This document shows, piece by piece, positions 11,094 to 64,000 of a stretch of DNA of 64,000 nucleotides. The stretch spans positions 1,054,001-1,118,000 of the forward strand of contig OZ316775.1 of the NCBI GenBank assembly GCA_973851085.1, written 5' to 3'. Made by a program: the position numbers and the translations under genes. The notes beneath the pieces were generated by a model that was given only the letters and a program-made list of their open reading frames with translations, did no database searches and was not told the origin of the DNA. The DNA comes from Ptychomitrium polyphyllum. Taxonomy: Eukaryota. Each line of letters begins with the position of its first letter. Position 1 is the stretch's first letter.

Positions 11094-14000
11094 ATGGGGG
11101 ATCCACTTGTCGCTCCTGCAGTAGTAGGAGCAGCAGTAAGTGCATTCTTCACAATGGTGATCGATGCAGCCAAATGTGAATTGGGACATAGGAAGAAGTG
11201 CAAACTCCTCTTGGAAAGTGCGAATAAACTCCAACCACATATTGATGCAGCCTATCAACATTCACCTAATTGGGAGAAAGCTCAATGTGATGCGTTGGAG
11301 GAAATCAAAATCATTTGGGAGAAGGCGAGAAGCTTTGGCACCAAAGGTGCAAATGAATCAAAGTCTGAGTGGGGAAAAAGAGCAATGATGTTTTGGCGGT
11401 GGGGGAAGTTGCCTGCTGAGCACATGGACATCATTGGCCGGATTGAGGAGGCCAAAAATAATGTTCTTCTTTGTGCTGCGGTTCAATATCTTAAGGATGT
11501 CAATAGTGCAAAGACAAGAACATCATCAGGTTTTTTAGGACAACAAATTCCAACAGAGATTGTAGGGGTGGATATTCCATTCAACAAACTCAAGGCTTCC
11601 ATACTTGAGAGCTATGCAAAAGACATGGCAAGCCACTTGGGTTTGCATGGAAGAGGTGGAGCAGGGAAAACGTTATTGGCAAAGATGTTGCATAACGATA
11701 GAGATATCAAAGAGAGGTATGGAGTTGATTCTATCAAGTGGATCACTGTTGGACTTAATGCAAGAGTACTTGATTTGTACAAAACAATGGCAACATTTTT
11801 AGAAGATGCAAGATTTGAACAAAGCTATGGTCATCGAAGCTTGGAAGATCAACGATCTTACTTGATAGATGCATTCAAAGAGAAGAAGGTGGTCTTGGTA
11901 TTGGACGATGTATGGCAGGAAGGAGGCGAACAAAATCATGCGATAATGTATTGGTTGAATATTGTTACAGCACCAGGGTCAGTAACCTTGATCACAACCC
12001 GCAATGTTGCAATATTTTCAGAAGTTTATGCTGATTCAGAGATTGTACTATCTCTTTCGGAAGATGATAGTTGGGAACTGTTTTGCTCTCATGCATTTCT
12101 CAACAGCACACCTCCGCAGTCCATTCCAGTGGAATTGGCCAAAGAAGTGTGTCAAGAATGTCAAGGGCTACCCTTGGCATTGAAAGTTGTGGGTAGCAGT
12201 ATGAAAGACAAGGTGAGTAAGGAAGAATGGGACCATGCTTTAAATAGCCTAAAGCAATCCAAAACAATATTGGGATCTCCAATTGACCATGAACTTTTTG
12301 GCCGCTTGCGATGGAGTTATGACATGTTGCAAGGGAATGTGTTGAAGACGTGTTTCTTATACTTTGCAGCATTTCCAGAAGACTATGAAATTTCAGTCAC
12401 CAAATTATTCCAAATGTGGATCTCTGAAGGCTTGGTTGATACGGAGGATGAAGCAATGGATTACTTGGAAGTCCTTGAGAAGCGGTCTTTGATTGAATGG
12501 AATCATTCTGGAGGACATGCAAAAGTACATGATATTTTGCGAGACCTTGCGCTCATGATCATAGAAAATGCTGAGGTAGGCGAAAGTGCATATGAATGTT
12601 TCTTTGCATCAGGAAAAGTGTTGAAAGCATTTCCAAGAAGGAAGTCATCTCAAGCCATCAAAAGGATGTCATTAATCAATAACACCATTTATCAAAGCAT
12701 AAACAACCTTCAACTACCTCATCTTCAAGTGTGCTTGCTCTCAGGGCTCAATGGATCGATAGATCAAATATCAAATATTTTCTCCAATTTAGAGAAAACA
12801 AATTTGAAGTATCTAGACTTCTCTCATAATCAGTTCAACTTCCAAGAAATGGTTCCATGTATGAAATTGTCAACCTATCTTACGCATTTGGACCTATCAT
12901 GCGGTCAATCCTTGCAGCAACTTCCACAACAAATTGGAGAATTGAAGGCCCTAATAAACCTAGATCTATCAGGGTGTTCATCCTTGCAGCAACTTCCACA
13001 ACAGATTGGACAATTGAGGGCCCTTATAAACTTCCGACTATCAAGGTGTTCATCCTTGCAGCAACTTCCACAACAAATTGGAGAATTGAAGGCCCTTACA
13101 AGATTGGATCTATCAGAGTGTTCATCCTTGCAGCAACTTCCACACCAAATTGGAGAGTTGAAGGCCCTTACATACTTGCATCTATCAGAGTGTTCATCCT
13201 TGCAGCAACTTCCACAACAAATTGGAGAATTGAAGGCTCTTAGATGCTTGCGTCTATTAAAGTGTTCATCCTTGCAGCAATTTCCACAACAAATTGGAGA
13301 ATTGAAGGCCCTTAGATTCTTGGAACTATCAGGGTGTTCATCCGTGCAGCAACTTCCACACCAAATTGCAGAATTGGAGGCCCTTACATGCTTGCATCTA
13401 TCAGGGAATTCATCCTTACGGCAACTTCCATACCAAATTGGAGAATTGAAAACCGTTACATTCTTGGATCTATCACGGTGTTCATCCTTGCAGCAACTTC
13501 CACAGCAAATTGGAGAATTGAAGGCCCTTAAGTACTTGGTTCTAAATGGGTGTTCATCCTTGCAGCAACTTCCACACCAAATTGGAGAATTGAAGGCCCT
13601 TACGCACTTGGATCTATCAAAGTGTTCATCCTTGCAGCAACTTCCACACCAAATTGGAGAATTGAAGGCCCTTACATACTTGCATCTATCAGGGACTTCA
13701 TCCTTGCAGCAACTTCCACACCAAATTGGAGAATTGAAGGCCCTTACGCACTTGGATCTATCAAAGTGTTCATCCTTGCAGCAACTTCCACACCAAATTG
13801 GAGAATTGAAGGCCCTTACATACTTGCATCTATCAGGGACTTCATCCTTGCAACAACTTCCACACCAAATTGGAGAATTGAAGGCACTTACACTCTTGGA
13901 TGTATCCGATTGTTCATCCTTGTTGCAACTTCCACACCAAATTGGAGAATTGAAGGCTGTTACACACTTCCATCTAAGGAGGAATTCATCCTTGCGGCAA

Positions 14001-14732
14001 CTTCCACACCAAATTGGGGAATTGAAGGCTCTTAGAAACTTGTATCTAAATGGGTGTTCATCCTTGCAGCAACTTCCACACCAAATTGGAGACCTAAATG
14101 CCCTTAGAAACTTAAATCTAAATGGGTGTTCATCTTTGGTGCAGCTTCCACAATTAATTGGAGAATTGAAGGCCCTTACAAACTTAACACTATTAGGGTG
14201 TTCATCCTTGCAGAAACTTCCACAGCAAATTGGAGAATTGAAGGCCCTTAGAGAATTGAATCTAACAGGATGTTCATCCTTGCAGCAACTTCCACAACAA
14301 ATTGGAGAATTGAAGGCCCTTACAAACTTAACACTATTAGGGTGTTCATCCTTGCAGAAACTTCCACAGCAAATTGGAGAATTGAAGGCCCTTAGAGAAT
14401 TGAATCTAACAGGATGTTCATCCTTGCAGCAACTTCCACAACAAATTGGAGAATTGAAGGCCCTAACAAACTTAACACTATTAGGGTGTTCATCCTTGCA
14501 ACAACTTCCACAACGAATTGGAAAATTGAAGGCCCTTACAGGATTGAATCTATCGAGGTGTTCATCCTTGCAGCAACTTCCACACCAAATTGGAGAATTG
14601 AAGGCCCTTACAAAATTGGATCTATCTGAGTGTTCATCCTTGCAACAACTTCCACAACAAATTAGAGAAATGAAGGCCCTTATAGAATTAAATCTATCAG
14701 GGTATTCATCCTTGGAAAAACTTCCTCAATAA
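11094..14732 (+). CDS. CC-NB-ARC-LRR (NLR) immune receptor, 1212 aa, intronless CDS, about 26 tandem 24-aa LRRs
   Basis: N-terminus MGDPLVAPAVVGAAVS (MAEPL-like), P-loop GRGGAGKT, kinase-2 LVLDDVW, RNBS-B GSVTLITTRN, GLPLAL, RNBS-D CFLYFAAFPED, MHD-equivalent VHD, then [24 protein letters not shown] repeats. A likely 5'UTR splice acceptor TTTGTAG ends at 11087. Confidence 0.95.
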   Translation: MGDPLVAPAVVGAAVSAFFTMVIDAAKCELGHRKKCKLLLESANKLQPHIDAAYQHSPNWEKAQCDALEEIKIIWEKARSFGTKGANESKSEWGKRAMMFWRWGKLPAEHMDIIGRIEEAKNNVLLCAAVQYLKDVNSAKTRTSSGFLGQQIPTEIVGVDIPFNKLKASILESYAKDMASHLGLHGRGGAGKTLLAKMLHNDRDIKERYGVDSIKWITVGLNARVLDLYKTMATFLEDARFEQSYGHRSLEDQRSYLIDAFKEKKVVLVLDDVWQEGGEQNHAIMYWLNIVTAPGSVTLITTRNVAIFSEVYADSEIVLSLSEDDSWELFCSHAFLNSTPPQSIPVELAKEVCQECQGLPLALKVVGSSMKDKVSKEEWDHALNSLKQSKTILGSPIDHELFGRLRWSYDMLQGNVLKTCFLYFAAFPEDYEISVTKLFQMWISEGLVDTEDEAMDYLEVLEKRSLIEWNHSGGHAKVHDILRDLALMIIENAEVGESAYECFFASGKVLKAFPRRKSSQAIKRMSLINNTIYQSINNLQLPHLQVCLLSGLNGSIDQISNIFSNLEKTNLKYLDFSHNQFNFQEMVPCMKLSTYLTHLDLSCGQSLQQLPQQIGELKALINLDLSGCSSLQQLPQQIGQLRALINFRLSRCSSLQQLPQQIGELKALTRLDLSECSSLQQLPHQIGELKALTYLHLSECSSLQQLPQQIGELKALRCLRLLKCSSLQQFPQQIGELKALRFLELSGCSSVQQLPHQIAELEALTCLHLSGNSSLRQLPYQIGELKTVTFLDLSRCSSLQQLPQQIGELKALKYLVLNGCSSLQQLPHQIGELKALTHLDLSKCSSLQQLPHQIGELKALTYLHLSGTSSLQQLPHQIGELKALTHLDLSKCSSLQQLPHQIGELKALTYLHLSGTSSLQQLPHQIGELKALTLLDVSDCSSLLQLPHQIGELKAVTHFHLRRNSSLRQLPHQIGELKALRNLYLNGCSSLQQLPHQIGDLNALRNLNLNGCSSLVQLPQLIGELKALTNLTLLGCSSLQKLPQQIGELKALRELNLTGCSSLQQLPQQIGELKALTNLTLLGCSSLQKLPQQIGELKALRELNLTGCSSLQQLPQQIGELKALTNLTLLGCSSLQQLPQRIGKLKALTGLNLSRCSSLQQLPHQIGELKALTKLDLSECSSLQQLPQQIREMKALIELNLSGYSSLEKLPQ

Positions 14733-17700
14733 ATTGGACAAATGAAGGCCCTTTACGGACTTGGCTCTATTACGGTGTTCATCCTTGCAGCAACTTCCAC
14801 AAGAGATTGGACAATTGAGGGCCCTTATAAACTTCCGACTATCAAGGTGTTCATCCTTGCAGCAACTTCCACAGCAAATTGGAGAATTGAAGGCTCTTTC
14901 GTACTTGGGACTATCAGGGTGTTCATCTTAGCAGCAACTTCCACACCAAATTGGAGAATTGAAGGCCCTTATGCACTTGCATCTTTAAGAGTGTTCATCC
15001 TTGCAGCAACTTCCACACCAAATTGGAGAATTGAAGGCCCTTATAGAATTGGAACTATCAGAGTGTTCATCCTTGCAGCAACTTCCACAACGATTTGGAG
15101 AATTGAAGGTCCTTACAGAATTGGATCTATCAGGGTGTTCATCCTTGCAGTAACTTCCACACCAAATTGGAGAATTGAAGGCTCTTTCGTACTTGGGACT
15201 ATCAGGGTGTTCATTTTAGCAGCAACTACCACACCAAATTGGAGAATTGAAGGCCCTTATGCACTTGCATCTTTAAGAGTGTTCATCCTTGCAGCAACTT
15301 CTACACCAAATTGGAGAATTGAAGGCCCTTATAGAATTGGAACTATCAGAGTGTTCATCCTTGCAGCAACTTCCACAACGATTTGGAGAATTGAAGGTCC
15401 TTACAGAATTGGATCTATCAGGGTGTTCATCCTTGCAGTAACTTCCACACCAAATTGGAGAATTGAAGGCTCTTTCGTACTTGGGACTATCAGGGTGTTC
15501 ATTTTAGCAGCAACTACCACACCAAATTGGAGAATTGAAGGCCCTTACAGAATTGGATCTATCAGGGTTCTCATCCCAACACCAACTTTTGCACCAAATT
15601 GGAGAAATGAAGGGCCTTATGCACTTGCATCTATCAGGGTGTTCATCCTTGCAGCAACTTCCACAACGATTTGGCGAATTGAAGGGCCTTACAGAATTGG
15701 ATCTATCAAGGTGCTCATCCCTGCAGCAACTTCCACACCAAATTGGAGAATTCAAGGCCCTTATGCACTTGCATCTATCACGGTGTTCATCCTTGCAACA
15801 ACTTCCACATCAAAACTGAGAATTGAAGGCCCTTACAGAATTGAATCTATCAGGGTGCTCATCCCTGCAGCAACTTCCACACCAAATTGGAGAATTCAAG
15901 GCCCTTATGCACTTGCATCTATCACGGTGTTCATCCTTGCATCAGCTTCCACATCAAAACTGAGAATTGAAGGCCCTTACAGAATTGAATCTATCGGGGT
16001 GTTCATCATTAGAGCAACTTCTTCATTAAATTAGACAAATGAAGGCCCTTTACGGACTTGGCTCTATTACAGAATTCATCCTTGCAGCAACTTCCACACC
16101 AAATTGGAGAATTGAAGGCCCTTATAGAACTGGAACTATCAGAGTGTTCATCCTTGCAGCAACTTCCACAACGATTTGGCGAAAAAAAGGGCCTTACAGA
16201 ATTGGATCTATCAGGGTGCTCATCCCTGCAGCAACTTCCACACCAAATTGGAGAATTCAAGGGCCTTATGCACTTGCATCTATCAGGGTGTTCATCCTTG
16301 CAGCAACTTCCACATCAAAATTGACAATTGAAGGGCCTTACAGAATTGGATCTATCAGGGAGTTCATCCTTGCAGCAACTTCTACACCAAATTGGAGAAT
16401 TGAAGGCCCTTATAGAACTGGAACTATCAAGGTGTTCATCCTTGCAGCAACTTCCACAACGATTTGGCGAATTGAAGGGCCTTACAGAATTGGATCTATC
16501 AGGGTGCTCATCCCTGCAGCAACTTCCACACCAAATTGGAGAATTCAAGGCCCTTATGCACTTGCATCTATCACGGTGTTCATCCTTGCAACAACTTCCA
16601 CATCAAAATTGACAATTGAAGGGCCTTACAGAATTGGATCTATCAGGGAGTTCATCCTTGCAGCAACTTCCACACCAAATTGAAGAATTGAAGGCCCTTA
16701 TAGAACTGGACCTATCAGGGTATTCATCCTTGCAGCAACTTCCACAACGATTTGGCGAATTGAAGGGCCTTACAGAATTGGATCTATCAAGGTGCTCATC
16801 CCTGCAGCAACTTCCACACCAAATTGGAGAATTCAAGGCCCTTATGCACTTGCATCTATCACGGTGTTCATCCTTGCAACAACTTCCACATCAAAACTGA
16901 GAATTGAAGGCCCTTACAGAATTGAATCTATCGGGGTGTTCATCATTAGAGCAACTTCCTCATTAAATTGGACAAATGAAGGCCCTTTACGGACTAGGCT
17001 CTATTACAGTGTTCATCCTTGCAACAACTTCCACACCAAATTAAAGAGTTGAAGGGCCTTACATACTTGCATTAATCAGGGTGATCATCCTTGCAGCAAC
17101 TTCCACATCAAATTGGAGAATTCAAGGGCCTTATGCACTTGCATCTATCACGGTGTTCATCCTTGCAACAACTTCCTCATCAAAACAAAGAATTGAAGGC
17201 CCTTTTAGAATTGAATCTATCGGGGTGTTTTTCATTAGAGCAACTTCCTCATTAAATTGGACAAATGAAGGCCCTTTACGGACTAGGCTCTATTACAGTG
17301 TTTATCCTTGCAGCAACATCTACACCACATTAAAGAGTTGAAGGGCCTTACATACTTGCATCAATCAGGGTATTCAACCTTGCAGCAACTTCCACATCAA
17401 AATTGACAATTGAAGGGCCTTACAGAATTGGATCTATCAGGGAGTTCATCCTTGCAGCAACTTCTACACCAAATTGGAGAATTGAAGGCCCTTATAGAAC
17501 TGGAACTATCAAGGTGTTCATCCTTGCAGCAACTTCCACAACGATTTGGCGAATTGAAGGGCCTTACAGAATTGGATCTATCAGGGTGCTCATCCCTACA
17601 GCAACTTCCACACCAAATTGGAGAATTCAAGGCCCTTATGCACTTGCATCTATCACGGTGTTCATCCTTGCAACAACTTCCACATCAAAATTGACAATTG

Positions 17701-20700: not shown

Positions 20701-22080
20701 TTGCATCTATCAGGGTGTTCATCCTTGCAGCAACTTCCACATCAAAATTGACAATTGAAGGGCCTTACAGAATTGGATCTATCAGGGTGCTCATCCCCAC
20801 AGCAACTTCCACACCAAATTGGAGAATTGAAGGGCCTTATGCACTTGCATCTATCAGGGTGTTCATCCTTGCAGCAACTTCCACATCAAAATTGACAATT
20901 GAAGGGCCTTACAGAATTGGATCTATCAGGGTGCTCATCCCTACAGCAACTTCCACACCAAATTGGAGAATTGAAGGGCCTTATGCACTTGCATCAATTA
21001 CGGTAATCATCCCTGTAGCAACTTCCGCACCAAATTGGAGAATTGAAGGGCCTTATGCACTTGCATCTATCAGGGTGTTCATCCTTGCAGCAACTTCCAC
21101 ATCAAAATTGACAATTGAAGGGCCTTACAGAATTGGATCTATCAGGGTGCTCATCCCTACAGCAACTTCCACACCAAATTGGAGAATTGAAGGGCCTTAT
21201 GCACTTGCATCAATTACGGTAATCATCCCTGTAGCAACAATCACACCAAATTGGAGAATTGAAGGGCCTTATGCACTTGCATCAATCAGGGTGTTCATCC
21301 TTGCAGCAACTTCCACATCAAAATTGACAATTGAAGGGCCTTACAGAGTTTAATCTATCAGACTGATCATCCTTGCAGCAACTTCCACATGAAATTGGAG
21401 AATTGAAGGCCCTTACAGAATTGGATTAAAATGGGTGTTCATCCTTGCAAAACTTCCACACCAAATTGGAGAATTGAAGGGCCTTATGCACTTGCATCTA
21501 TCAGGGTGCTCATCCCTGGAGCAACATCCACACTAAATTGGAGAATTGAAGGGCCTTATGCACTTGCATCTATCAGGGTGTTCATCCTTGCAGCAACTTC
21601 CACATCAAAATTGACATTTGAAGGGCCTTACAGAATTGGATCAATCAGGGTGCTCATCCCCGCAGCAACTTCCACACCAAATTGGAGAATTGAAGGCCCT
21701 TATGCACTTGCATCTATCAGGGTGTTCATCCTTGCAGCAACTTCCACATCAAAATTGACATTTGAAGGGCCTTACAGAATTGGATCTATCAGGGTGCTCA
21801 TCCCCACAGCAACTTCCACACCAAATTGGAGAATTGAAGGGCCTTATGCACTTGCATCTATCAGGGTGTTCATCCTTGCAGCAACTTCCACATCAAAATT
21901 GACAATTGAAGGGCCTTACAGAATTGGATCTATCAGACTGATCATCCTTGCAGCAACTTCCACATGAAATTGGAGAATTGAAGGCCCTTACAGAATTGGA
22001 TTAAAATGGGTGTTCATCCTTGCAATACTTCCACACCAAATTGGAGAATTGAAGGGCCTTATGCACTTGCATCTATCAGG

Positions 22081-25000
22081 GTGTTCATGCTTCTAGCAAC
22101 TTCCACATCAAAATTGACAATTGAAGGGCCTTACAGAATTGGATCTATCAGACTGATCATCCTTGCAGCAACTTCCACATGAAATTGGAGAATTGAAGGC
22201 CCTTACAGAATTGGATTTAAATGGGTGTTCATCCTTGCAGCAACTTCCACACCAAATTGAAGAATTGAAGGGCCTTATGCACTTGCATCTATCAGGGTGT
22301 TCATCCTTGCAACAACTTCCACATCAAAACTGAGAATTGAAGGCCCTTACAGAATTGGATCTATCAGGGTGCTCATCCCTGCAGCAACTTCCACACCAAA
22401 TTGGAGAATTCAAGGCCCTTATGCACTTGCATCTATCAGGGTGTTCATCCTTGCAGCAACTTCCACATCAAAATTGACACTTGAAGGGCCTTACAGAATT
22501 GGATCTATCAGGGTGCTCATCCCTACAGCAACTTCCACACCAAATTGGAGAATTGAAGGGCCTTATGCACTTGCATCAATTACGGTAATCATCCTTGTAG
22601 CAACATCCACACCAAATTGGAGAATTGAAGGGCCTTATGCACTTGCATCTATCAGGGTGTTCATCCTTGCAGCAACTTCCACATCAAAATTGACAATTGA
22701 AGGGCCTTACAGAATTGGATCTATCAGGGTGCTCATCCCTACAGCAACTTCCACACCAAATTGGAGAATTGAAGGGCCTTATGCACTTGCATCTATCAGG
22801 GTGTTCATCCTTCCAGCAACATCCACACCAAATTGGAGAATTGAAGGGCCTTATGCACTTGCATCTATCAGGGTGTTCATCCTTGCAGCAACTTCCACAT
22901 CAAAATTGACAATTGAAGGGCCTTACAGAATTGGATCTATCAGGGTGATCATCCTTGCAGCAACTTCCACACCAAATTGGAGAATTCAAGGCCCTTATGC
23001 ACTTGCATCTATGAGGGTGTTCATCCTTGCAGCAACTTCCACATCAAAACTGACAATTGAAGGGCCTTACAGAATTGGATCTATCAGGGTGCTCATCCCT
23101 ACAGCAACTTCCACACCAAATTGGAGAACTAAAGGGCCTTATGCACTTGCATCAATTACGGTAATCATCACTGTAGCAACATCCACACCAAATTGGAGAA
23201 TTGAAGGGCCTTATGCACTTGCATCTATCAGGGTGTTCATCCTTGCAACAACTTCCACATCAGAACTGAGAATTGAAGGCCCTTACAGAATTGAATCTAT
23301 CAGGGTGCTCATCTCTGCAGCAACTTCCACACCAAATTGGAGAATTCAAGGCCCTTATGCACTTGCATCTATCAGGGTGTTCATCTTTGCGACAAAATCC
23401 ACACCAAATTGGAGAACTGAAGAGCCTTATGCACTTGCATCTATCAGGGTGTTCATGCTTCTAGCAACTTCCACATCAAAATTGACAATTGAAGGGCCTT
23501 ACAGAATTGGATCTATCAGACTGATCATCCTTGCAGCAACTTCCACATGAAATTGGAGAATTGAAGGCCCTTACAGAATTGGATTTAAATGGGTGTTCAT
23601 CCTTGCAGCAACTTCCACACCAAATTGAAGAATTGAAGGGCCTTATGCACTTGCATCTATCAGGGTGTTCATCCTTGCAACAACTTCCACATCAAAACTG
23701 AGAATTGAAGGCCCTTACAGAATTGGATCTATCAGGGTGCTCATCCCTGCAGCAACTTCCACAGCAAATTGGAGAACTGAAGGGCCTTATGCACTTGCAT
23801 CTATCAGGGTGTTCATCTTTGCGACAAAATCCACACCAAATTGGAGAACTGTAGAGCCTTATGCACTTGCATCTATCAGGGTGTTCATGCTTCTAGCAAC
23901 TTCCACATCAAAATTGACAATTGAAGGGCCTTACAGAATTGGATCTATCAGACTGATCATCCTTGCAGCAACTTCCACATGAAATTGGAGAATTGAAGGC
24001 CCTTACAGAATTGGATTTAAATGGGTGTTCATCCTTGCAGCAACTTCCACACCAAATTGAAGAATTGAAGGGCCTTATGCACTTGCATCTATCAGGGTGT
24101 TCATCCTTGCAACAACTTCCACATCAAAACTGAGAATTGAAGGCCCTTACAGAATTGGATCTATCAGGGTGCTCATCCCTGCAGCAACTTCCACACCAAA
24201 TTGGAGAATTCAAGGCCCTTATGCACTTGCATCTATCAGGGTGTTCATCCTTGCAGCAACTTCCACATCAAAATTGACACTTGAAGGGCCTTACAGAATT
24301 GGATCTATCAGGGTGCTCATCCCTACAGCAACTTCCACACCAAATTGGAGAATTGAAGGGCCTTATGCACTTGCATCAATTACGGTAATCATCCTTGTAG
24401 CAACATCCACACCAAATTGGAGAATTGAAGGGCCTTATGCACTTGCATCTATCAGGGTGTTCATCCTTGCAGCAACTTCCACATCAAAATTGACAATTGA
24501 AGGGCCTTACAGAATTGGATCTATCAGGGTGCTCATCCCTACAGCAACTTCCACACCAAATTGGAGAATTGAAGGGCCTTATGCACTTGCATCTATCAGG
24601 GTGTTCATCCTTCCAGCAACATCCACACCAAATTGGAGAATTGAAGGGCCTTATGCACTTGCATCTATCAGGGTGTTCATCCTTGCAGCAACTTCCACAT
24701 CAAAATTGACAATTGAAGGGCCTTACAGAATTGGATCTATCAGGGTGATCATCCTTGCAGCAACTTCCACACCAAATTGGAGAATTCAAGGCCCTTATGC
24801 ACTTGCATCTATGAGGGTGTTCATCCTTGCAGCAACTTCCACATCAAAACTGACAATTGAAGGGCCTTACAGAATTGGATCTATCAGGGTGCTCATCCCT
24901 ACAGCAACTTCCACACCAAATTGGAGAACTAAAGGGCCTTATGCACTTGCATCAATTACGGTAATCATCACTGTAGCAACATCCACACCAAATTGGAGAA

Positions 25001-25185
25001 TTGAAGGGCCTTATGCACTTGCATCTATCAGGGTGTTCATCCTTGCAACAACTTCCACATCAGAACTGAGAATTGAAGGCCCTTACAGAATTGAATCTAT
25101 CAGGGTGCTCATCTCTGCAGCAACTTCCACACCAAATTGGAGAATTCAAGGCCCTTATGCACTTGCATCTATCAGGGTGTTCATC
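22081..25185 (+). repeat. Higher-order duplication: about 1.3 kb block repeated at 1800-bp offset (25 units)
   Basis: Lines 22081-23385 read the same as 23881-25185. ORF pairs 22297/24097 and 22697/24497 match. Confidence 0.85.
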
Positions 25186-30184: not shown

Positions 30185-33100
30185 TTGAAGGGCCTTACAG
30201 AATTGGATCTATCAGGGTGCTCATCCCTACAGCAACTTCCACACCAAATTGGAGAATTGAAGGGCCTTATGCACTTGCATCTATCATGGTGTTCATCCTT
30301 GCAGCAACTTCCACATCAAATTGCAGAATTGAAGGCCCTTACAGAATTGGATCTATCAGGGTGCTCATCCCTCCAGCAACTTCCACAGCAAATTGGAGAA
30401 TTGAAGGGCCTTATGTACTTGCATCTATTAGGGTGTTCATCCTTGCAGCAACTTCCACATCAGAATTGACAATTGAAGGGCCTTACAGAATTGGATCTAT
30501 CAGGGTGCTCATCCCTACAGCAACTTCCACACCAAATTGGAGAATTGAAGGGCCTTATGCACTTGCATCTATCAGGGTGTTCATCCTTCCAGCAACATCC
30601 ACACCAAATTGGAGAATTGAAGGCCCTTACAGAATTGGATCTATCAGGGTGATCATCCTTGCAGCAACTTCGACACCAAATTGGAGAATTGAAGGGCCTT
30701 ATGCACTTGCATCTATCATGGTGTTCATCCTTGCAGCAACTTCCACATCAAAATTGACAACTGAAAGGCCTTACAGAATTGGATCTATCAGGGTGCTCAT
30801 CCCTGCAGCAACATCTACACCAAATTAAAGAAATGAAGGGCCTTACAGAATTGGATCTATCAGGGTGTTCATCCTTGCAGCAACTTCCACATCAAAACTG
30901 ACAATTGAAGGGCCTTACAGAATTGGATCTATCAGGGTGATCATATTTGCAGCAACTTCCACACCAAATTGGAGAATTCAAGGCCCTTATGCACTTGCAT
31001 CTATGAGGGTGTTCATCCTTGCAGCAACTTCCACATCAAAACTGACAATTGAAGGGCCTTACAGAATTGGATCTATCAGGGTGCTCATCCCTACAGCAAC
31101 TTCCACACCAAATTGGAGAATTCAAGGCCCTTATGCACTTGCATCTATCAGGGTGTTCATCCTTGCAACAACTTCCACATCAAAACTGAGAATTGAAGGC
31201 CCTTACAGAATTGAATCTATCAGGGTGCTCATCTCTGCAGCAACTTCCACACCAAATTGGAGAATTCAAGGCCCTTATGCACTTGCATCTATCAGGGTGT
31301 TCATCCTTGCAACAACTTCCACATCAAAACTGAGATTTGAAGGCCCTTACAGAATTGAGTCTATCAGGGTGCTCATCCCTGCAGCAACTTCCACACCAAA
31401 TTGGAGAATTGAAGGCCCTTATGCACTTGCATCTATCAGGGTGTTCATCCTTGCAGCAACTTCCACATCAAAATTGACAATTGAAGGGCCTTACAGAATT
31501 GGATCTATCAGGGTGCTCATCCCTCCAGCAACTTCCACACCAAATTGGAGAATTGAAGGGCCTTATGCACTTGCATCTATCAGGGTGTTCATCCTTGCAG
31601 CAACTTCCACATCAAAATTGACAATTGAAGGCCCTTACAGAATTGGATCTATCAGGGTGCTCATCCCTCCAGCAACTTCCACAGCAAATTGGAGAACTGA
31701 AGGGCCTTATGCACTTGCATCTATCAGGGTGTTCATCCTTGCGACAAAATCCACACCAAATTGGAGAACTGTAGAGCCTTATGCACTTGCATCTATCAGG
31801 GTGTTCTTCCTTGCAGCAACTTCCACATCAAAATTGACACTTGAAGGGCCTTACAGAATTGGATCTATCAGGGTGCTCATCCCTACAGCAACTTCCACAC
31901 CAAATTGGAGAATTGAAGGGCCTTATGCACTTGCATCAATTACGGTAATCATCCCTGTAGCAACATCCACACCAAATTGGAGAATTGAAGGGCCTTATGC
32001 ACTTGCATCTATCAGGGTGTTCATCCTTGCAGCAACTTCCACATCAAAACTGACAATTGAAGGGCCTTACACAATTGGATCTATCAGGGTGCTCATCCCT
32101 GCACCAACTTCCACACCAAAATGGAGAATTGAAGGGCCTTATGCACTTGCATCTATCATGGTGTTCATCCTTGCAGCAACTTCCACACCAAATTGGAGAA
32201 TTGAAGGGCCTTATGCACTTGCATCTATCAGGGTGTTCATCCTTCCAGCAACATCCACACCAAATTGGAGAATTGAAGGCCCTTACAGAATTGGATCTAT
32301 CAGGGTGCTCATCCCTCCAGCAACTTCCACACCAAATTGGAGAATTCAAGGCCCTTATGCACTTGCATCTATGAGGGTGTTCATCCTTGCAGCAACTTCC
32401 ACATCAAAACTGACAATTGAAGGGCCTTACAGAATTGGATCTATCAGGGTGCTCATCCCCACAGCAACTTCCACACCAAATTGGAGAATTGAAGGGCCTT
32501 ATGCACTTGCATCTATCATGGTGTTCATCCTTGCAGCAACTTCCACATCAAAACTGACAATTGAAGGGCCTTACAGAATTGGATCTATCAGGGTGCTCAT
32601 CCCCACAGCAACTTCCACACCAAATTGGAGAATTGAAGGGCCTTATGCACTTGCATCTATCAGGGTGTTCTTCCTTGCAGCAACTTCCACATCAAAATTG
32701 ACACTTGAAGGGCCTTACAGAATTGGATCTATCAGGGTGCTCATCCCTACAGCAACTTCCACACCAAATTGGAGAATTGAAGGGCCTTATGCACTTGCAT
32801 CAATTACGGTAATCATCCCTGTAGCAACATCCACACCAAATTGGAGAATTGAAGGGCCTTATGCACTTGCATCTATCAGGGTGTTCATCCTTGCAGCAAC
32901 TTCCACATCAAAATTGACAATTGAAGGGCCTTACAGAACTGGATCTATCAGGGTGTTCATCCTTGCAGCAACTTCCACATCAAAATTGACAATTGAAGGG
33001 CCTTACAGAATTGGATCTATCAGGGTGCTCATCCCTACAGCAACTTCCACACCAAATTGGAGAATTGAAGGGCCTTATGCACTTGCATCTATCATGGTGT

Positions 33101-35800
33101 TCATCCTTGCAGCAACTTCCACATCAAATTGCAGAATTGAAGGCCCTTACAGAATTGGATCTATCAGGGTGCTCATCCCTCCAGCAACTTCCACACCAAA
33201 TTGGAGAATTCAAGGCCCTTATGTACTTGCATCTATTAGGGTGTTCATCCTTGCAGCAACTTCCACATCAGAATTGACAATTGAAGGGCCTTACAGAATT
33301 GGATCTATCAGGGTGCTCATCCCTACAGCAACTTCCACACCAAATTGGAGAATTGAAGGGCCTTATGCACTTGCATCTATCAGGGTGTTCATCCTTCCAG
33401 CAACATCCACACCAAATTGGAGAATTGAAGGCCCTTACAGAATTGGATCTATCAGGGTGATCATCCTTGCAGCAACTTCGACACCAAATTGGAGAATTGA
33501 AGGGCCTTATGCACTTGCATCTATCATGGTGTTCATCCTTGCAGCAACTTCCACATCAAAATTGACAACTGAAAGGCCTTACAGAATTGGATCTATCAGG
33601 GTGCTCATCCCTGCAGCAACATCTACACCAAATTAAAGAAATGAAGGGCCTTACAGAATTGGATCTATCAGGGTGTTCATCCTTGCAGCAACTTCCACAT
33701 CAAAACTGACAATTGAAGGGCCTTACAGAATTGGATCTATCAGGGTGATCATATTTGCAGCAACTTCCACACCAAATTGGAGAATTCAAGGCCCTTATGC
33801 ACTTGCATCTATGAGGGTGTTCATCCTTGCAGCAACTTCCACATCAAAACTGACAATTGAAGGGCCTTACAGAATTGGATCTATCAGGGTGCTCATCCCT
33901 ACAGCAACTTCCACACCAAATTGGAGAATTCAAGGCCCTTATGCACTTGCATCTATCAGGGTGTTCATCCTTGCAACAACTTCCACATCAAAACTGAGAA
34001 TTGAAGGCCCTTACAGAATTGAATCTATCAGGGTGCTCATCTCTGCAGCAACTTCCACACCAAATTGGAGAATTCAAGGCCCTTATGCACTTGCATCTAT
34101 CAGGGTGTTCATCCTTGCAACAACTTCCACATCAAAACTGAGATTTGAAGGCCCTTACAGAATTGAGTCTATCAGGGTGCTCATCCCTGCAGCAACTTCC
34201 ACACCAAATTGGAGAATTGAAGGCCCTTATGCACTTGCATCTATCAGGGTGTTCATCCTTGCAGCAACTTCCACATCAAAATTGACAATTGAAGGGCCTT
34301 ACAGAATTGGATCTATCAGGGTGCTCATCCCTCCAGCAACTTCCACACCAAATTGGAGAATTGAAGGGCCTTATGCACTTGCATCTATCAGGGTGTTCAT
34401 CCTTGCAGCAACTTCCACATCAAAATTGACAATTGAAGGCCCTTACAGAATTGGATCTATCAGGGTGCTCATCCCTCCAGCAACTTCCACAGCAAATTGG
34501 AGAACTGAAGGGCCTTATGCACTTGCATCTATCAGGGTGTTCATCCTTGCGACAAAATCCACACCAAATTGGAGAACTGTAGAGCCTTATGCACTTGCAT
34601 CTATCAGGGTGTTCTTCCTTGCAGCAACTTCCACATCAAAATTGACACTTGAAGGGCCTTACAGAATTGGATCTATCAGGGTGCTCATCCCTACAGCAAC
34701 TTCCACACCAAATTGGAGAATTGAAGGGCCTTATGCACTTGCATCAATTACGGTAATCATCCCTGTAGCAACATCCACACCAAATTGGAGAATTGAAGGG
34801 CCTTATGCACTTGCATCTATCAGGGTGTTCATCCTTGCAGCAACTTCCACATCAAAACTGACAATTGAAGGGCCTTACAGAATTGGATCTATCAGGGTGC
34901 TCATCCCTGCAGCAACTTCCACACCAAATTGGAGAATTCAAGGCCCTTATGCTCTTGCATCTATCAGGGTGCTCATCCCTGCAGCAACTTCCACACCAAA
35001 TTGAAGAATTGAAGGGCCTTATGCACTTGCATCTATCAGGGTGTTCATCCTTCCAGCAACATCCACACCAAATTGGAGAATTGAAGGCCCTTACAGAATT
35101 GGATCTATCAGGGTGCTCATCCCTCCAGCAACTTCCACACCAAATTGGAGAATTCAAGGCCCTTATGCACTTGCATCTATGAGGGTGTTCATCCTTGCAG
35201 CAACTTCCACATCAAAACTGACAATTGAAGGGCCTTACAGAATTGGATCTATCAGGGTGCTCATCCCCACAGCAACTTCCACACCAAATTGGAGAATTGA
35301 AGGGCCTTATGCACTTGCATCTATCATGGTGTTCATCCTTGCAGCAACTTCCACATCAAAACTGACAATTGAAGGGCCTTACAGAATTGGATCTATCAGG
35401 GTGCTCATCCCCACAGCAACTTCCACACCAAATTGGAGAATTGAAGGGCCTTATGCACTTGCATCTATCAGGGTGTTCTTCCTTGCAGCAACTTCCACAT
35501 CAAAATTGACACTTGAAGGGCCTTACAGAATTGGATCTATCAGGGTGCTCATCCCTACAGCAACTTCCACACCAAATTGGAGAATTGAAGGGCCTTATGC
35601 ACTTGCATCAATTACGGTAATCATCCCTGTAGCAACATCCACACCAAATTGGAGAATTGAAGGGCCTTATGCACTTGCATCTATCAGGGTGTTCATCCTT
35701 GCAGCAACTTCCACATCAAAATTGACAATTGAAGGGCCTTACAGAACTGGATCTATCAGGGTGTTCATCCTTGCAGCAACTTCCACATCAAAATTGACAA
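30185..35800 (+). repeat. Higher-order tandem duplication of 2808 bp (39 units) in the array core
   Basis: Near-identical ORF pairs offset by exactly 2808: 30185/32993, 30865/33673, 32044/34852. Confidence 0.85.
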
Positions 35801-36939
35801 TTGAAGGGCCTTACAGAATTGGATCTATCAGGGTGCTCATCCCTACAGCAACTTCCACACCAAATTGGAGAATTGAAGGGCCTTATGCACTTGCATCTAT
35901 CAGGGTGTTCATCCTTCCAGCAACATCCACACCAAATTGGAGAATTGAAGGCCCTTACAGAATTGGATCTATCAGGGTGCTCATCCCTCCAGCAACTTCC
36001 ACACCAAATTGGAGAATTCAAGGCCCTTATGCACTTGCATCTATGAGGGTGTTCATCCTTGCAGCAACTTCCACATCAAAACTGACAATTGAAGGGCCTT
36101 ACAGAATTGGATCTATCAGGGTGCTCATCCCCACAGCAACTTCCACACCAAATTGGAGAATTGAAGGGCCTTATGCACTTGCATCTATCATGGTGTTCAT
36201 CCTTGCAGCAACTTCCACATCAAAATTGACAACTGAAGGGCCTTACAGAATTGGATCTATCAGGGTGCTCATCCCTGCAGCAACATCTACACCAAATTAA
36301 AGAAATGAAGGGCCTTATGCACTTGCATCTATCAGGGTGTTCATCCTTGTAGCAACTCCGACATCAAATTGGAGAATTGAAGGCCCTTACAGAATTGAAT
36401 CTAAATGGGTGTTCATCCTTGCAGCAACATCCACACCAAATTGGAGAATTGAAGGGCCTTATGCACTTGCATCTATCATGGTGTTCATCCTTGTAGCAAC
36501 TTCCACATCAAATTGGAGAATTAAAGGCCCTTACAGAATTGAATCTAAATGGATGTTCATCCTTGCAGCAACATCCACACCAAATTGGAGAATTGAAGGG
36601 CCTTATGCACTTGCATCTATGAGGGTGTTCATCCTTGCAGCAACTTCCACACCAAATTGGAGAATTGAAGGGCCTTTTGCACTTGCAGCTATCAGGGTGT
36701 TCATGCTTGGAGCAACATCCACACCAAATTGGAGAACTGAAGGGCTTTATCAAGTGCATCTATCAGGGTGTTCATCCTTGCAGCAACTTCCACATCAAAT
36801 TGGAGAATTCAAGGGCCTTACAGAATTGGATCTATCAGGGTGCTCATCCCTGCAGCAACTTCCACACCAAATTGGAGAATTGAAGGACCTTATGCACTTG
36901 CATCTATCAGGGTGATCATCCTTGGAGCAACATCCACAC

Positions 36940-44900: not shown

Positions 44901-47900
44901 TGCAGCAACTTGCACACCAATTTGGAGAATTGAAGGGCCTTACAAAATTGGACCTATCAGGGTGCTCATCCTTGCAGCAACATCCACACCAAATTGGAGA
45001 ATTGAAGGGCCTTATGCACTTGCATCTATCAGGGTGTTCATCCTTGCAGCAACTTCCACACCAAATTGGAGGGGTGAAGACCTAACAGAGTTGCATCTAT
45101 CAGGGTGTTCATCCTTGCAGCAACTTCCACACCAAATTGGAGAATTGAAGGGCCTTATGCACTTGCATCTATCAGGGTGTTTATCCTTGCAGCAACTTCC
45201 ACATCAAAATTGACAATTGAAGGGCCTTACAGAATTGGATCTATCAGGGTGATCATCCTTGCAGCAACTTGCACATCAAATTGGAGAATTAAAGGCCCTC
45301 ACAGAATTGAATCTAAATGGGTGTTCATCCTTGCAGCAACATCCATACCAAATTGGAGAATTGAAGGCCCTTACAGAATTGGATCTATTAGGGTGCTCAT
45401 CCCTGCAGCAACTTCCACATCAAATTGGAGAATTGAAGGGCCTTATGCACTTGCATCTATCAGGGTGTTCATCCTTGCAGCAACTTCCACATCAAATTGG
45501 AGAATTGAAGGCCCTTACAGAATTGGCTCTATCAGGGTGTTCATCCTTGCAGCAACTTGCACACCAATTTGGAGAATTGAAGGGCCTTACAAAATTGGAC
45601 CTATCAGGGTGCTCATCCTTGCAGCAACATCCACACCAAATTGGAGAATTGAAGGGCCTCATGCACTTGCATCTATCAGGGTGTTCATCCTTGCAGCAAC
45701 TTCCACACCAAATTGGAGAATTGAAGGGCCTTATGCACTTGCATCTATCAGAGTGTTCATTCTTCTAGCAACTTCCACATCAAAATTGACAATTGAAGGG
45801 CCTTACAGAATTCGATCTATCAGACTGATCATCCTTGCAGCAACTTCCACACCAAATTGGAGAATTGAAGGCCCTTACAGAATTGGATCTATCAGGGTGT
45901 TCATCTTTGCAGAACTTCCACACCAAATTGGAGAGTTGAAGGGCCTTATGCACTTGCATCTATCAGGGTGTTCATCCTTCCAGCATCTTCCACATCAAAT
46001 TCGAGAGTTGAAGGCCCTTTTAGAATTGCATCTAAATGGGTATTCATCCTTGCAGCAACTTCCACACCAAATTGGAGAATTGAAGGGCCTTATGCACTTG
46101 CAGCTATCAGGACGTTCATCCTTCGAGCAACTTCCACATCAAAATTGACAATTGAAGGGCCTTACAGAATTGGATCTATCAGGGTGCTCATCCCTGCAGC
46201 AACATCCACACCAAATTGGAGAATTGAAGGGCCTTATGCACTTGCATCTATGAGGGTGTTCATCCTTGTAGCAACTTCCACATCAAAATAGACAATTGAA
46301 GGGCCTTACAGAATTTGATCTATCAGACTGATCATCCTTGCAGCAACTTCCACACGAAATTGGAGAATTGAAGGCCCTTCCAGAATTGGATCTATCAGGG
46401 TGCTCATCCTTGCAGCAACTTCCACACCAAATTGGAGAGGTGAAGGGCCTTATGCACTGGCATCTATTAGGGTGTTCATCCTTGCAGCAACATCCACACC
46501 AAATTGGAGAATTGAAGGGCCTTATGCACTTGCATCTATCAGGGTGTTCATCCTTGTAGCAACTTCCACATCAAATTAGAGAATTGAAGGCCCTTACAGA
46601 ATTGAATCTAAATGGGTGTTCATCCTTGCAGCAACATCCACACCAAATTGGAGAATTGAAACGCCTTATGCACTTGCATCTATGAGGGTGTTCATCCTTG
46701 CAGCAACATCCACACCAAATTGGAGAATTGAAGGGCCTTATGCACTTGCATCTATCAGGGTGATCATTGTTGTAGCAACTTCCACATCAAATTGGAGAAT
46801 TGAAGGCCCTTACAGAATTGAATCTATGAGGGTGTTCATCCTTGCAGCAACATCCACACCAAATTGGAGAATTGAAGGGCCTTATGAACTTGCATCTATC
46901 AGGGTGTTCATCCTTCTCGCAACTTCCACATCAAAATTGACAATTGAAGGGCCTTACAGAATTTGATCTATCAGACTGATCATCCTTGCAGCAACTTCCA
47001 CACCAAATTGGAGAATTGAAGGCCCTTACAGAATTGGATCTATCAGGGTGTTCATCTTTGCAGAACTTCCACACCAAATTGGAGAGTTGAAGGGCCTTAT
47101 GCACTTGCATCTATCAGGGTGTTCATCCTTCCAGCATCTTCCACATCAAATTCGAGAATTGAAGGCCCTTTTAGAATTGCATCTAAATGGGTATTCATCC
47201 TTGCATTAACTTCCACACCAAATTGGAGAATTGAAGGGCCTTATGCACTTGAATCTATCAGGGTTTTCATCCTTCCAGCAACTTCCACACCAAATTGGAG
47301 TGTTGAAGGCCCTTATGCACTTGCATCAATCAGGGTAATCATCCTTGGAGCAACTTGCACATCAAATTCAAGAATTGAAGGCCCTTACAAAATTGGACCT
47401 ATCAGGGTGCTCATCCTTGCAGCAACATCCACACCAAATTGGAGAACTGAAGGGCCTTATGCACTTGCATCTATCAGGGTGTTCATCCTTGCAACAACTT
47501 CCACATCAAATTGGAGAATTGAAGGCCCTTACAGAATCGGATCTCTCAGGGTGTTCATCCTTGCAGCAACATCCACACCAAATTGGAGAATTGAAGGGCC
47601 TTGTGCACTTGAATCTATCAGGGTGTTCATCCTTGCAGCAACTTGCACACCAATTTGGAGAATTGAAAGGCCTTACAAAATTGGACCTATCAGGGTGCTC
47701 ATCCTTGCAGCAACATCCACACCAAATTGGAGAATTGAAGGGCCTCATGCACTTGCATCTATCAAGGTGTTCTTCCTTGCACCAACTTCCACACCAAATT
47801 GGAGAATTGAAGGGCCTTATGCACTTGCATCTATCAGGGTGTTCATCCTTGCAGCAACTTCCACATCAAATTGGAGAATTGAAGGCCCTTATAGAATTGG

Positions 47901-50900
47901 CTCTATCAGGGTGTTCATCCTTGCAGCAACATCCACACCAAATTGGAGAATTGAAGGGCCTTATGCACTTGAATCTATCAGGGTTTTCATCCTTCCAGCA
48001 ACTTCCACACCAAATTGGAGTGTTGAAGGCCCTTATGCACTTGCATCAATCAGGGTAATCATCCTTGGAGCAACTTGCACATCAAATTCAAGAATTGAAG
48101 GCCCTTACAAATTGGACCTATCAGGGTCCTCATCCTTGCAGCAACATCCACACCAAATTGGAGAACTGAAGGGCCTTATGCACTTGCATCTATCAGGGTG
48201 TTCATCCTTGCAGCAACTTCCACATCAAATTGGAGAATTGAAGGCCCTTATGCACTTGCATCTATCAGGGTGTTCATCCTTGCAGCAACATCCACACCAA
48301 ATTGGAGAATTGAAGGGCCTTGTGCACTTGAATCTATCAGGGTGTTCATCCTTGCAGCAACTTGCACACCAATTTGGAGAATTGAAGGGCCTTACAAAAT
48401 TGGACCTATCAGGGTGCTCATCCTTGCAGCAACATCCACACCAAATTGGAGAATTGAAGGGCCTTATGCACTTGCATCTATCAGGGTGTTCATCCTTGTA
48501 GCAACTTCCACACCAAATTGGAGGGGTGAAGACCTAACAGAGTTGCATCTATCAGGGTGTTCATCCTTGCAGCAACTTCCACACCAAATTGGAGAATTGA
48601 AGGGCCTTATGCACTTGCATCTATCAGGGTGTTTATCCTTGCAGCAACTTCCACATCAAAATTGACAATTGAAGGGCCTTACAGAATTGGATCTATCAGG
48701 GTGATCATCCTTGCAGCAACTTGCACATCAAATTGGAGAATTAAAGGCCCTCACAGAATTGAATCTAAATGGGTGTTCATCCTTGCAGCAACATCCATAC
48801 CAAATTGGAGAATTGAAGGCCCTTACTGAATTGGATCTATTAGGGTGCTCATCCCTGCAGCAACTTCCACATCAAATTGGAGAACTGAAGGGCCTTATGC
48901 ACTTGCATCTATCAGGGTGTTCATCCTTGCAGCATATTCCACATCAAATTCGAGAATTGAAGGCCCTTACTGAATTGCATCTATCAGGGTATTCATCCTT
49001 GCAGCAACATCCATACCAAATTGGAGAATTGAAGGGCCTTAAGCACTTGCATCTATCAGGGTGTTTATCCTTGCAGCAACTTCCACACTAAAATTGACAA
49101 TTGAAGGGCCTTACAGAATTGGATCTATCAGGGTGATCATCCTTGCAGCAACTTCCACATCAAATTGGAGAATTGAAGGCCGTTACAGAATTGGATCTAT
49201 TAGGGTGCTCATCCCTGCAGCAACTTCCACACCAAATTGGAGAATTCAAGGCCCTTATGCACTTGCATCTATTAGGGTGTTCATCCTTGCAGCAACTTCC
49301 ACACCAAATTGGAGAATTGAAGGCCCTTACAGAATTGAATCTATCAGGGTGTTCATCCTTGCAGCAACATCTACACCAAATTGGAGAATTGAAGGGCCTT
49401 ATGCACTTGAATCTATCAGGATGTTCATCCTTCCAGCAACATCCACACCAAATTGGAGAGTTGAAGGGCCTTACATAATTGCATCAATCAGGGTATTCAT
49501 CCTTGCAGCAACTTCCACACCAAATTGGAGAGGTGAAGACCTAACATAGTTGCATCTATCAGGGTGTTCATCCTTCCAGCAACTTCTACACCAAATTAAG
49601 GAATTGAAGGGCCTTACAGAATTGGATCTAAATGGGTGTTCATTCTTGCAGCAACATCCACACCAAATTGGAGAATTGAAGGCCCTTATATACTTGCATC
49701 AATCAGGGTATTCATCCTTGCAACAACTTCCACACCAAATTGGAGAATTGAAGGCCCTTACGCACTTGGATCTATCAAAGTGTTCATCCCTTGCAGCAAC
49801 TTCCACAACAAATTGGAGAATTGAAGGCCCTTACGTACTTGCATCTATCAGAGTGTTCATCCCTGCAGCAACTTCCACAACAAATTGGAGAATTGAAGGC
49901 CCTTAGATGCTTGCGTCTATTAAGGTATTTATCCTTGCAATAACTTCTAGAACACATTCGAGAATTGAACGCCCTTTTGCACTTGCATCTATCAGGGTGT
50001 TCATCCTTGCAGCAACTTCCACAACAAATTGGAAAATAGAGGCCCTTAAGCGCTTGCATCTATCAGGGTGTTCATCCTTGCAGCAACTTCCACACCAAAT
50101 TGGAAAATTGATGGCCCTTAAGCGTTTGCATCTATCAGGGTGTTCATCCTTGTAGCAACTTCCACACCAAATAGGAGAATTGCAGGCCCTTAGAGAATTG
50201 GATCTATCAGAATGTTCATCCTTGCAGCAACTTCTACAACAAATTGGAGAATTGAAGGCCCTTACAGAATTGGATCTATCGGGGTGTTCATCCTTGCAGC
50301 AACTTCCACAACAAACTCGAGAATTGAAAGCCCTTAGATGCTTGCGTCTATTAAGGTGTTCATCCTTGCAACAACTTACACACCAAATTGGAGAATTGAA
50401 GGCCCTTACATACTTGCATCTATCAGAGTGTTCATCCTTGCAGCAACTTCCACAACAAATTGGAGAATTGAAGGCCCTTACACACTTGAGACTATTACGG
50501 TGTTCATCTTTGTAGCAACTTCCACACCAAATTGGAGAATTGAAGACCTTTACGCACTTGGATCTATCACGGTGTTCATCCTTGCAGCAATTCCACAGCA
50601 AATTCGGGAATTGAAGGCCCTTACGCACTTGAATCTATCACGGTGTTCACCCTTGGAGCAACTTCTACAACAAATTGGAGAATTGAAGGCCCTTATGCAC
50701 TTGGATCTATCAAAGTGTTCAGCCTTACAGCAGTTCCCTCAGCAAATTGGGAAATTGAAGGCCCTTACATACTTGAGACTATCACGTTGTTCATCCTAGC
50801 AGCAACTACCATAGCAAATTTAAGAATTGAAGGCCCTTATATATTGGAGATTGTTAGGATGTTTATCTTTGCAACAACTTCCACAGCAAATTCGAGAAGT

Positions 50901-51189
50901 AAAAGCTTTTATGCACTTGGATCTATCAAAGTGTTCATCCTTGCAATAGCTTCCATAACAAATTGGAGAATCAAAGGCCTTTATGCATTTTGACCTATCA
51001 GGGTGCTTATCTTTACAACAACTTCCATACCAAATTGAAGAGCTGAAGGCTCTTATAAACTTGGATCTGTTGAGGGTGTTCATCTTTGTAGCAACCTCTA
51101 CAACAAATTGGGGAGTTGAAGACTTTCACGCACTTGAATGTAAATGAATTTGTATACTTGCAGCACCTTCTATAGGAGATTAAGATTAC

Positions 51190-54027: not shown

Positions 54028-54495
54028 ATGTCGAGCAATCCGAGCATGGCCACGGCGATAACCCTGCTCACGCGGTCAGGCACTCTTCCCTCTCTCCGCT
54101 TTTCTGTTCCCACACTGTTTTTTCGGTTCAGAAGGTGGACTGGGTCGCATAATGGATGTGGGCAGTAGGGACAGCCCAGTGTTCGATTGATATCGAGTTC
54201 CAGCAGTTCTGGCGCTGTGTTGAGTTTTGCAGTTGAAACCGTTTGTGGCATCTCGACTCTGAAGCTGGGAGTTGTGACTGGGGACTCTTGTGTTCATGGT
54301 TTCCCATGGTTTGAAGGCTCTGAAATTGGGATCGTGGTTGTCGGATTTATCAGAGATGGCTTTGATTCTGCAGCGGGTGAAGAGCTTCTGGGTTGGGGTT
54401 CGAGAGGTGTGAGTGGCACCGCGACGCAGCGGAGAAATGACCTTCAAGTGTGCATCGTTGGGAGTGGCCCAGCGGGGTTTTACACTGCTGACTAG
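54028..54495 (+). pseudogene. Fragment (first exon) of mitochondrial NADPH:adrenodoxin/ferredoxin reductase
   Basis: A transit-peptide-like Ser/Arg-rich leader from ATG 54028/54046 is followed in the same frame by LQVCIVGSGPAGFYTAD, the FAD-binding start of this family. In-frame TAG at 54166 and 54493. No downstream exons recognised. Confidence 0.75.
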
Positions 54496-63715: not shown

Positions 63716-64000
63716 CACAACGTCCCCACACTCAGTCTCATAATCAGAACCACCCCATAAAACGCACTCAGCTAACCCCACACATTCCCTCAATCCCCCA
63801 CCATAACCTCGACTCACCCCTCCCCACGGCATGCGAACCTAAACCTAATCAACCACCAACAAACAACCAAGCCCCACATGACCCAAATGCTCCCCTCAAT
63901 CTAACCCCTAACAAAACAAACTCCTCAATCTCCAGAACTGCATAGCAACACCAACACTAACTCTTACATATCTCTCCACTAAGTCCATCACCAGAGACAG

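Follow-up and report, generated by a model that had tools for sequence, protein, structure and literature searches.

A moss NLR gene followed by 507 silent leucine-rich repeat units that probably form a gene-derived minisatellite

In a 64,000-nucleotide stretch of the genome of the moss Ptychomitrium polyphyllum (assembly GCA_973851085.1, contig OZ316775.1, positions 1,054,001–1,118,000 of the forward strand; hereafter the window), an intact gene for a nucleotide-binding leucine-rich repeat receptor (NLR) passes directly into a long array of silent leucine-rich repeat (LRR) units. When positions 12912–51157 were divided by cyclic profile alignment, 532 units of 72 bp resulted, of which 25 are coding and 507 silent (14712–51157). 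The array is real and striking in scale. The silent copies most likely represent a tail of the gene that was stranded by a premature stop codon and whose middle was amplified neutrally into a gene-derived minisatellite (probability roughly 0.7). A preliminary description of this DNA had correctly recognized a complete NLR open reading frame (ORF) followed, with no unrelated sequence, by about 505 units in the same orientation over 36.4 kb. It proposed them as a candidate reservoir of LRR cassettes that could feed the receptor, an idea left unsupported for the 453-unit core of the array, as the 25 coding units contain no strand of the core and not one of five alleles diagnostic of it. Most of the data agree with its caveat, which was that of a neutral satellite derived from the gene. 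A single haplotype was analysed throughout.

The receptor gene has the following parts:

11094–14732, + strand: intronless NLR ORF with a helical N-terminal domain, NB-ARC, winged helix and LRR (from the ORF, Pfam and Ceratodon relatives)
11094–11516, + strand: N-terminal domain with four long predicted helices, coiled-coil (CC)-like, starting MGDPL (MAEPL-like) (from the predicted structure)
11619–12269, + strand: NB-ARC domain with motifs that we take to be the P-loop, kinase-2 and GLPL (from Pfam and PDB matches of the model)
12912–14711, + strand: 25 coding 72-bp LRR units, 22 of them distinct, with two recent two-unit duplications (from cyclic profile alignment)
14712–14784, + strand: unit 27, with a stop at 14730–14732 and then a 1-base insertion (73 bp) (from cyclic alignment)

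Sequence analysis revealed that the ORF encodes 1,212 residues, is open up to its stop and matches NB-ARC (E 4e-38), winged-helix and LRR profiles of Pfam. It has the hallmarks of a plant NLR of the NB-ARC-LRR type: the nucleotide-binding motifs of the NB-ARC domain are intact, and the C-terminal LRR follows in frame with 25 perfect 24-residue units. The VHD motif is located beyond the NB-ARC domain, where the winged helix ends. The label CC-NB-ARC-LRR given in the preliminary description thus stands for the NB-ARC, winged-helix and LRR parts, whereas its CC part, here called CC-like, rests on a helical bundle predicted at moderate confidence (residues 6–55, 62–86, 90–103 and 109–141; predicted local distance difference test score, pLDDT, 44–80). 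No Pfam match of CC type (RPW8, Rx_N) was found for the NLR of the window; among 32 aligned family members, RPW8 matched 25 and Rx_N 23. The structure model of the first 606 residues (mean pLDDT 79.8) gave NRC2 and CC-NLR resistosomes as best PDB matches. A PDB sequence search with the N-terminal domain returned a single match, which we judged to be due to chance. The closest relatives of these 606 residues are Ceratodon purpureus proteins (55–57% identity over 99%), followed by other moss sequences. The MGDPL start resembles, by sight of the sequence rather than by the published profile, the MAEPL motif of CC-NLRs in non-flowering plants (PMC11218826), with which the gene also shares a helical N-terminal domain, NB-ARC, LRR and moss relatives; silent LRR arrays such as the one present here are not mentioned in the excerpted text of that report.

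Selection on the coding units is of the NLR type, with a diversified strand and a conserved scaffold: the quotient of non-synonymous and synonymous differences per site (pN/pS) is 1.71 in the strand (bootstrap 1.33–2.51) and 0.40 in the scaffold (bootstrap 0.29–0.56). The 25 units carry 20 strand types, and gain of units by two-unit duplication is visible in the coding LRR itself. At the end of the ORF, the stop codon overlaps the sole AATAAA hexamer of the array (14728–14733), another AATAAA of the LRR region being located at 12953. To judge by the sequence, the hexamer at the stop is a possible polyadenylation signal, which the same change would have created.

Behind the stop, the array falls into three parts according to unit comparison:

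14712–17090, + strand: array head, units 27–59, the first 121 bp nearly repeating coding units 2–4
17091–49645, + strand: array core, units 60–512 (453 units), young, with an alternating two-unit pattern, nested duplications and two sub-arrays (border near 36,350)
49646–51157, + strand: array tail, units 513–533, mostly unamplified and coding-like, the last seven strongly decayed

All units abut head to tail and in register, with no foreign sequence and no insertion larger than 1 base in any unit; identity at a lag of 72, calculated per kb, is 0.71–0.85 within the array versus 0.24–0.32 outside. Half of the silent units are broken: stops occur in 226 of the 507, length changes other than multiples of three in 36, and at least one of these two lesions in 253. 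The longest unbroken run of silent units is 10. These lesions are few in kind and many in copy: the 280 stops represent 19 alleles, one of which is present in 121 units, and one frameshift allele recurs in 13. In addition, the 73-bp stop-plus-frameshift unit type of unit 27 is found again at units 45, 58, 62 and 96, five in all. The amplification therefore took place later than the loss of coding.

The age pattern is that of a young amplification between older edges. Nearest-neighbour distance per 72 nucleotides is 0–0.6 in units 107–466 versus 5–12 in the last 27 units. Within the core, units of two types take turns at 366 of 452 steps (mean 250 and maximum 280 in 1,000 shuffles), and nested duplications reach about 3.8 kb. 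Frame-blind amplification, a long head-to-tail array, higher-order duplication and older edges are the characteristics of a minisatellite or satellite. The array also differs from the gene in where it varies. A nearly constant scaffold, claimed for the whole run in the preliminary description, holds in the coding units but not in the array, where scaffold codons 0, 3, 7, 8 and 12 (per-site diversity 0.33–0.47) are as variable as the strand. The variable strand is likewise a property of the gene: two strand types make up 238 of the 507 silent units, and 25 units drawn from the array contain on average 13.5 strand types (95% range 9–18), fewer than the gene's 20.

We propose the following putative model for the origin of the array. 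Initially, the coding LRR gained units via two-unit duplication, a step still observed in the gene. In unit 27, the mutation of CAA to TAA and the insertion of 1 base would then have severed the run, leaving a short silent tail. Afterwards, two decayed founder units, one later with a stop, may have been copied to about 450 by repeated unequal exchange or slippage, and growth of this core would have displaced the old end of the tail by 33 kb. The gene itself is probably still transcribed, with the transcript ending near the stop.

Comparison with related genes bears on the severed end. Among the 39 top homologues, 8 lack an LRR run and were left out; the remaining 31 of 31 end within 40 residues past the last canonical unit. 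At the protein level, counted units number 8, 8, 13, 15 and 24 in the five Ceratodon proteins nearest to the NLR, with abrupt ends and no common terminus. Contigs derived from the reads of two sequencing runs (X1 and X2) contain several paralogues whose gene bodies are about 85–90% alike. Among the paralogous contigs, one matches tail units 530–533 (50911–51121; 19 differences in 211) and another the 3′ flank (12 differences in 200), which is defined as follows:

51158–53000, no strand assigned: AT-rich 3′ flank, with a near-identical copy and at least one copy about 94% alike in read-derived contigs (from contig comparison)

Since a paralogue shares both the end of the tail and the 3′ flank, these are likely the old 3′ end of the gene family.

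We examined selection and transfer with tests modelled on the logic that has been applied to the silent vls cassettes of Borrelia (PMC3828179). In a context test of private mutations, which scored only gapless 72-bp units, the array carries 54 non-synonymous and 26 synonymous changes and 3 stops versus 53.7, 23.1 and 6.4 expected (non-synonymous over synonymous rate, omega, 0.89). An earlier rare-allele test, superseded by the context test, also looked neutral but was saturated (68 non-synonymous and 27 synonymous changes versus 68.5 and 24.4 expected). Young array mutations thus look neutral, not measurably constrained in this small test of 85–107 events. Nor are they concentrated on the strand, 23 of 85 private mutations falling in the six variable codons versus 25% expected, in which the array is unlike the vls cassettes (PMC3828179).

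These results bear on the rival view of the array as a donor library maintained in the manner of vls, with gene conversion carrying its strands into the expressed LRR. Silent homologous units do lie beside one expression site, in the same orientation and register, and vls cassettes likewise tolerate stops and frameshifts (PMC11499132). The in-register homology invoked in the preliminary description is real, and exchange along it is possible at the edges: recent tracts common to gene and array are limited to head and tail, and the core shows none. When the coding units of this haplotype were matched to their closest array units, 4 of 25 strands recurred exactly in edge units and 0 of 25 were core strands. 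Five alleles, three of them synonymous, are diagnostic of the core, where they occur at 23–70%, and 0 of 25 coding units carry any of them. The corresponding 95% upper bound on the converted share of coding units is 0.16 at an Ala-to-Gly site and 0.28 at a synonymous site (0.16–0.49 across sites, with units assumed to be independent). On core diagonals, the tracts shared with the gene reach at most 73 bp (median 55). Together with an array strand diversity below that of the gene, these data leave the reservoir reading at best weakly supported, and a working donor library has a small chance of being correct.

Neutral amplification is itself opposed by several observations, some of which favour a donor library. 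Apart from the strands that recur in edge units, three tracts with at most two mismatches link the gene to both edges, namely 121 bp between coding units 2–4 and units 27–29, 127 bp between coding units 11 and 13 and unit 514, and 104 bp between coding unit 5 and unit 523. Such tracts may reflect conversion in either direction, or duplication while the tail was short. The array, with 263 distinct units, holds 76 stop-free strands, 73 of which the gene lacks. Besides being small, the neutrality test shows a slight lean towards constraint of the coding kind: in the set of 107 events there are 5 stops versus 8.3 expected (p 0.17), 22 non-synonymous changes in the strand versus 16.1, and 44 in the scaffold versus 52, and one of four allele-count tests gave a p value of 0.037. 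Pairwise pN/pS in core strands is 1.00 with codon 21 and 1.48 without it, and that of the core scaffold is 0.58–0.71; within types, strand values are 1.02 (E type) and 2.44 (H type, with very few synonymous differences), all pairwise figures being non-independent and containing inherited founder differences, which inflate the strand values. With respect to the severed end, a short terminal motif is common to some of the 31 homologues, and abrupt ends alone are no proof of truncation. Finally, only one haplotype is behind all these comparisons.

A regulatory role was also considered. As chromatin or RNA, the array could damp the NLR and its paralogues through small interfering RNA, methylation or an overlong 3′ untranslated region, or the gene could already be silent, mechanisms familiar from general plant biology. 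The position of 36 kb of tandem sequence, 75–90% like the coding LRR, directly behind the stop is consistent with such a role, as is the share of C>T plus G>A among private mutations (38 of 85). Yet C>T rates in CG/CHG and CHH contexts are only about twofold apart (few events), the ORF is intact with its coding units under selection, and the neighbours are ordinary genes, all of which make a regulatory function improbable. Translation offers still less. In a shifted frame the array is open for up to 935 codons, but this openness reflects a unit consensus with no stop in that frame; private mutations there show omega 0.97–1.1 and 8–10 stops versus 4.5–5.6 expected, and Pfam matches arise without any stretch passing by itself. 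Removal of the array as an intron, with which this idea can be paired, is opposed by tail units that hold no intact exon to splice to. We consider either version very improbable.

The array might in principle be largely an artefact of assembly. Two exact duplications were observed, of 30409–32071 with 33217–34879 (1,663 bp) and of 22056–23385 with 23856–25185 (1,330 bp), which may be either very recent events or local mis-joins; none of the contig pieces listed spans even the compared stretches, and the comparison with the runs covered the gene body and the 3′ flank rather than the array as a whole. However, these are the only exact duplications above 1 kb (about 3 kb in total), and 22,046 of 36,416 100-mers are distinct; the number of distinct units, the age gradient and the nested duplications also speak against an artefact. 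Contigs of X1 and X2, runs possibly from the source sample, match all 30 bins of the gene-body stretch and all 30 of the 3′-flank stretch. Depth summed over these contigs, which is not a copy number, is 781,000–838,000 on LRR bins versus 907–6,259 on unique bins in X1, and 38,000–71,000 versus 170–609 in X2. It speaks for a unit present in many copies but does not confirm how long the array is. Because the summed depth of the unit is more than 100 times that of the gene body and the tail end and 3′ flank recur in a paralogue, an artefact is unlikely, to the point that we give it hardly any weight. Letters missing from X1 and X2 were considered as proof of a different individual, and this was dropped, given that the comparison took in 87% of X1, with gaps due to filtering, and that the two runs disagree at some sites. 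In two further runs, X3 and X4, matches amount to small shares with patchy cover, and LRR-like contigs are present in them.

Loose ends of contigs from all four runs contain an abundant LRR unit type for which the window offers no match at up to 3 mismatches. It hints at further LRR arrays, or at paralogues with units of their own. Beyond the neutral minisatellite favoured above, one may speculate that in this family of moss NLRs, LRR satellites of kilobase scale arise past the stop and act as an evolutionary library: strands or whole units would be returned to the receptor by the edges, and by the core in other haplotypes, and its end would be shifted. That the family has several such arrays would follow from the abundant unit type absent from the window. 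We regard this extension as doubtful, if worth keeping in mind.

The moss locus shares elements with several known systems. In soybean Rps11 (PMC8571336) and in Tsw and a survey of large LRRs (PMC9585916), the LRR is also described as enlarged by tandem duplication and unequal recombination; in those giant NLRs the additional repeats form part of the protein (30 or more repeats, up to 3,400 residues), whereas here 25 units are coding, 507 are silent and no introns interrupt the run. The fungal HNWD/NWD NLRs het-e and het-d are likewise reported to have near-identical repeats with hypervariable surface positions, to gain and lose units, and to exchange repeats with paralogues and a pseudogene (PMC12222747). 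Their repeats are WD40, with 10–12 units in het-e, all within the ORF, and a downstream array is not described in the excerpted text. The amplification would resemble the unequal exchange of Rps11 and het-e repeats, but its product here is non-coding. The ROCO genes of Ectocarpus, which shuffle LRR exons, are built of 72-nucleotide modules of 24 residues and also have non-coding copies within the locus; the modules there are exons bearing splice sites, and spare copies lie in introns, often inverted (PMC3341825). The moss units, unlike these, abut head to tail, intronless and 3′ of the stop, and none is an exon of its own. Borrelia vls has a contiguous silent array of about 15 cassettes, under diversifying selection and with demonstrated one-way transfer (PMC3828179, PMC11499132); the moss core, in contrast, is homogenized and shows no transfer. 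Literature searches on moss NLR/LRR arrays and LRR-derived satellites, with subscription papers outside their scope, listed no paper in which silent LRR units by the hundred follow an NLR.

The surroundings of the locus are rich in genes. Upstream, a TIP41 gene is arranged head to head with the NLR (region 9300–11093), and a sequence resembling an intron acceptor stops 6 bases short of the NLR start codon, the upstream region being common to paralogous contigs. Exons of a RING-type E3 ligase, presumably GW2/DA2-like, occupy 1–2420 on the – strand; the single exon tested had no Pfam match. Downstream of the array, an isolated short frame at 54445–54495 reads VCIVGSGPAGFYTA and then stops; we take it to resemble the start of adrenodoxin reductase that binds flavin adenine dinucleotide, possibly a gene fragment. 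It is followed by a multi-exon gene with an S1 domain (56815–59325), presumably eIF2-alpha, and by a gene on the – strand (61880–63830) with an internal repeat of 21 residues (63 bp) and no Pfam match, which we assume to resemble a desiccation- or cold-induced protein.

In summary, this locus captures a coding immune repeat in the course of turning into satellite-like DNA within a gene-rich region. It points to the instability of LRR runs in moss NLRs, given 532 units at one locus versus the approximately 15 repeats on which plant NLRs centre, their largest LRR domains reaching 3,400 residues (PMC9585916). Similar arrays would be mis-annotated as LRR-only genes or would collapse in short-read assemblies. 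Because the core carries diagnostic alleles that are missing from the gene, whatever passed from it into the receptor would be recognizable, and the locus thus makes the old question of silent LRR donors in plants directly testable.

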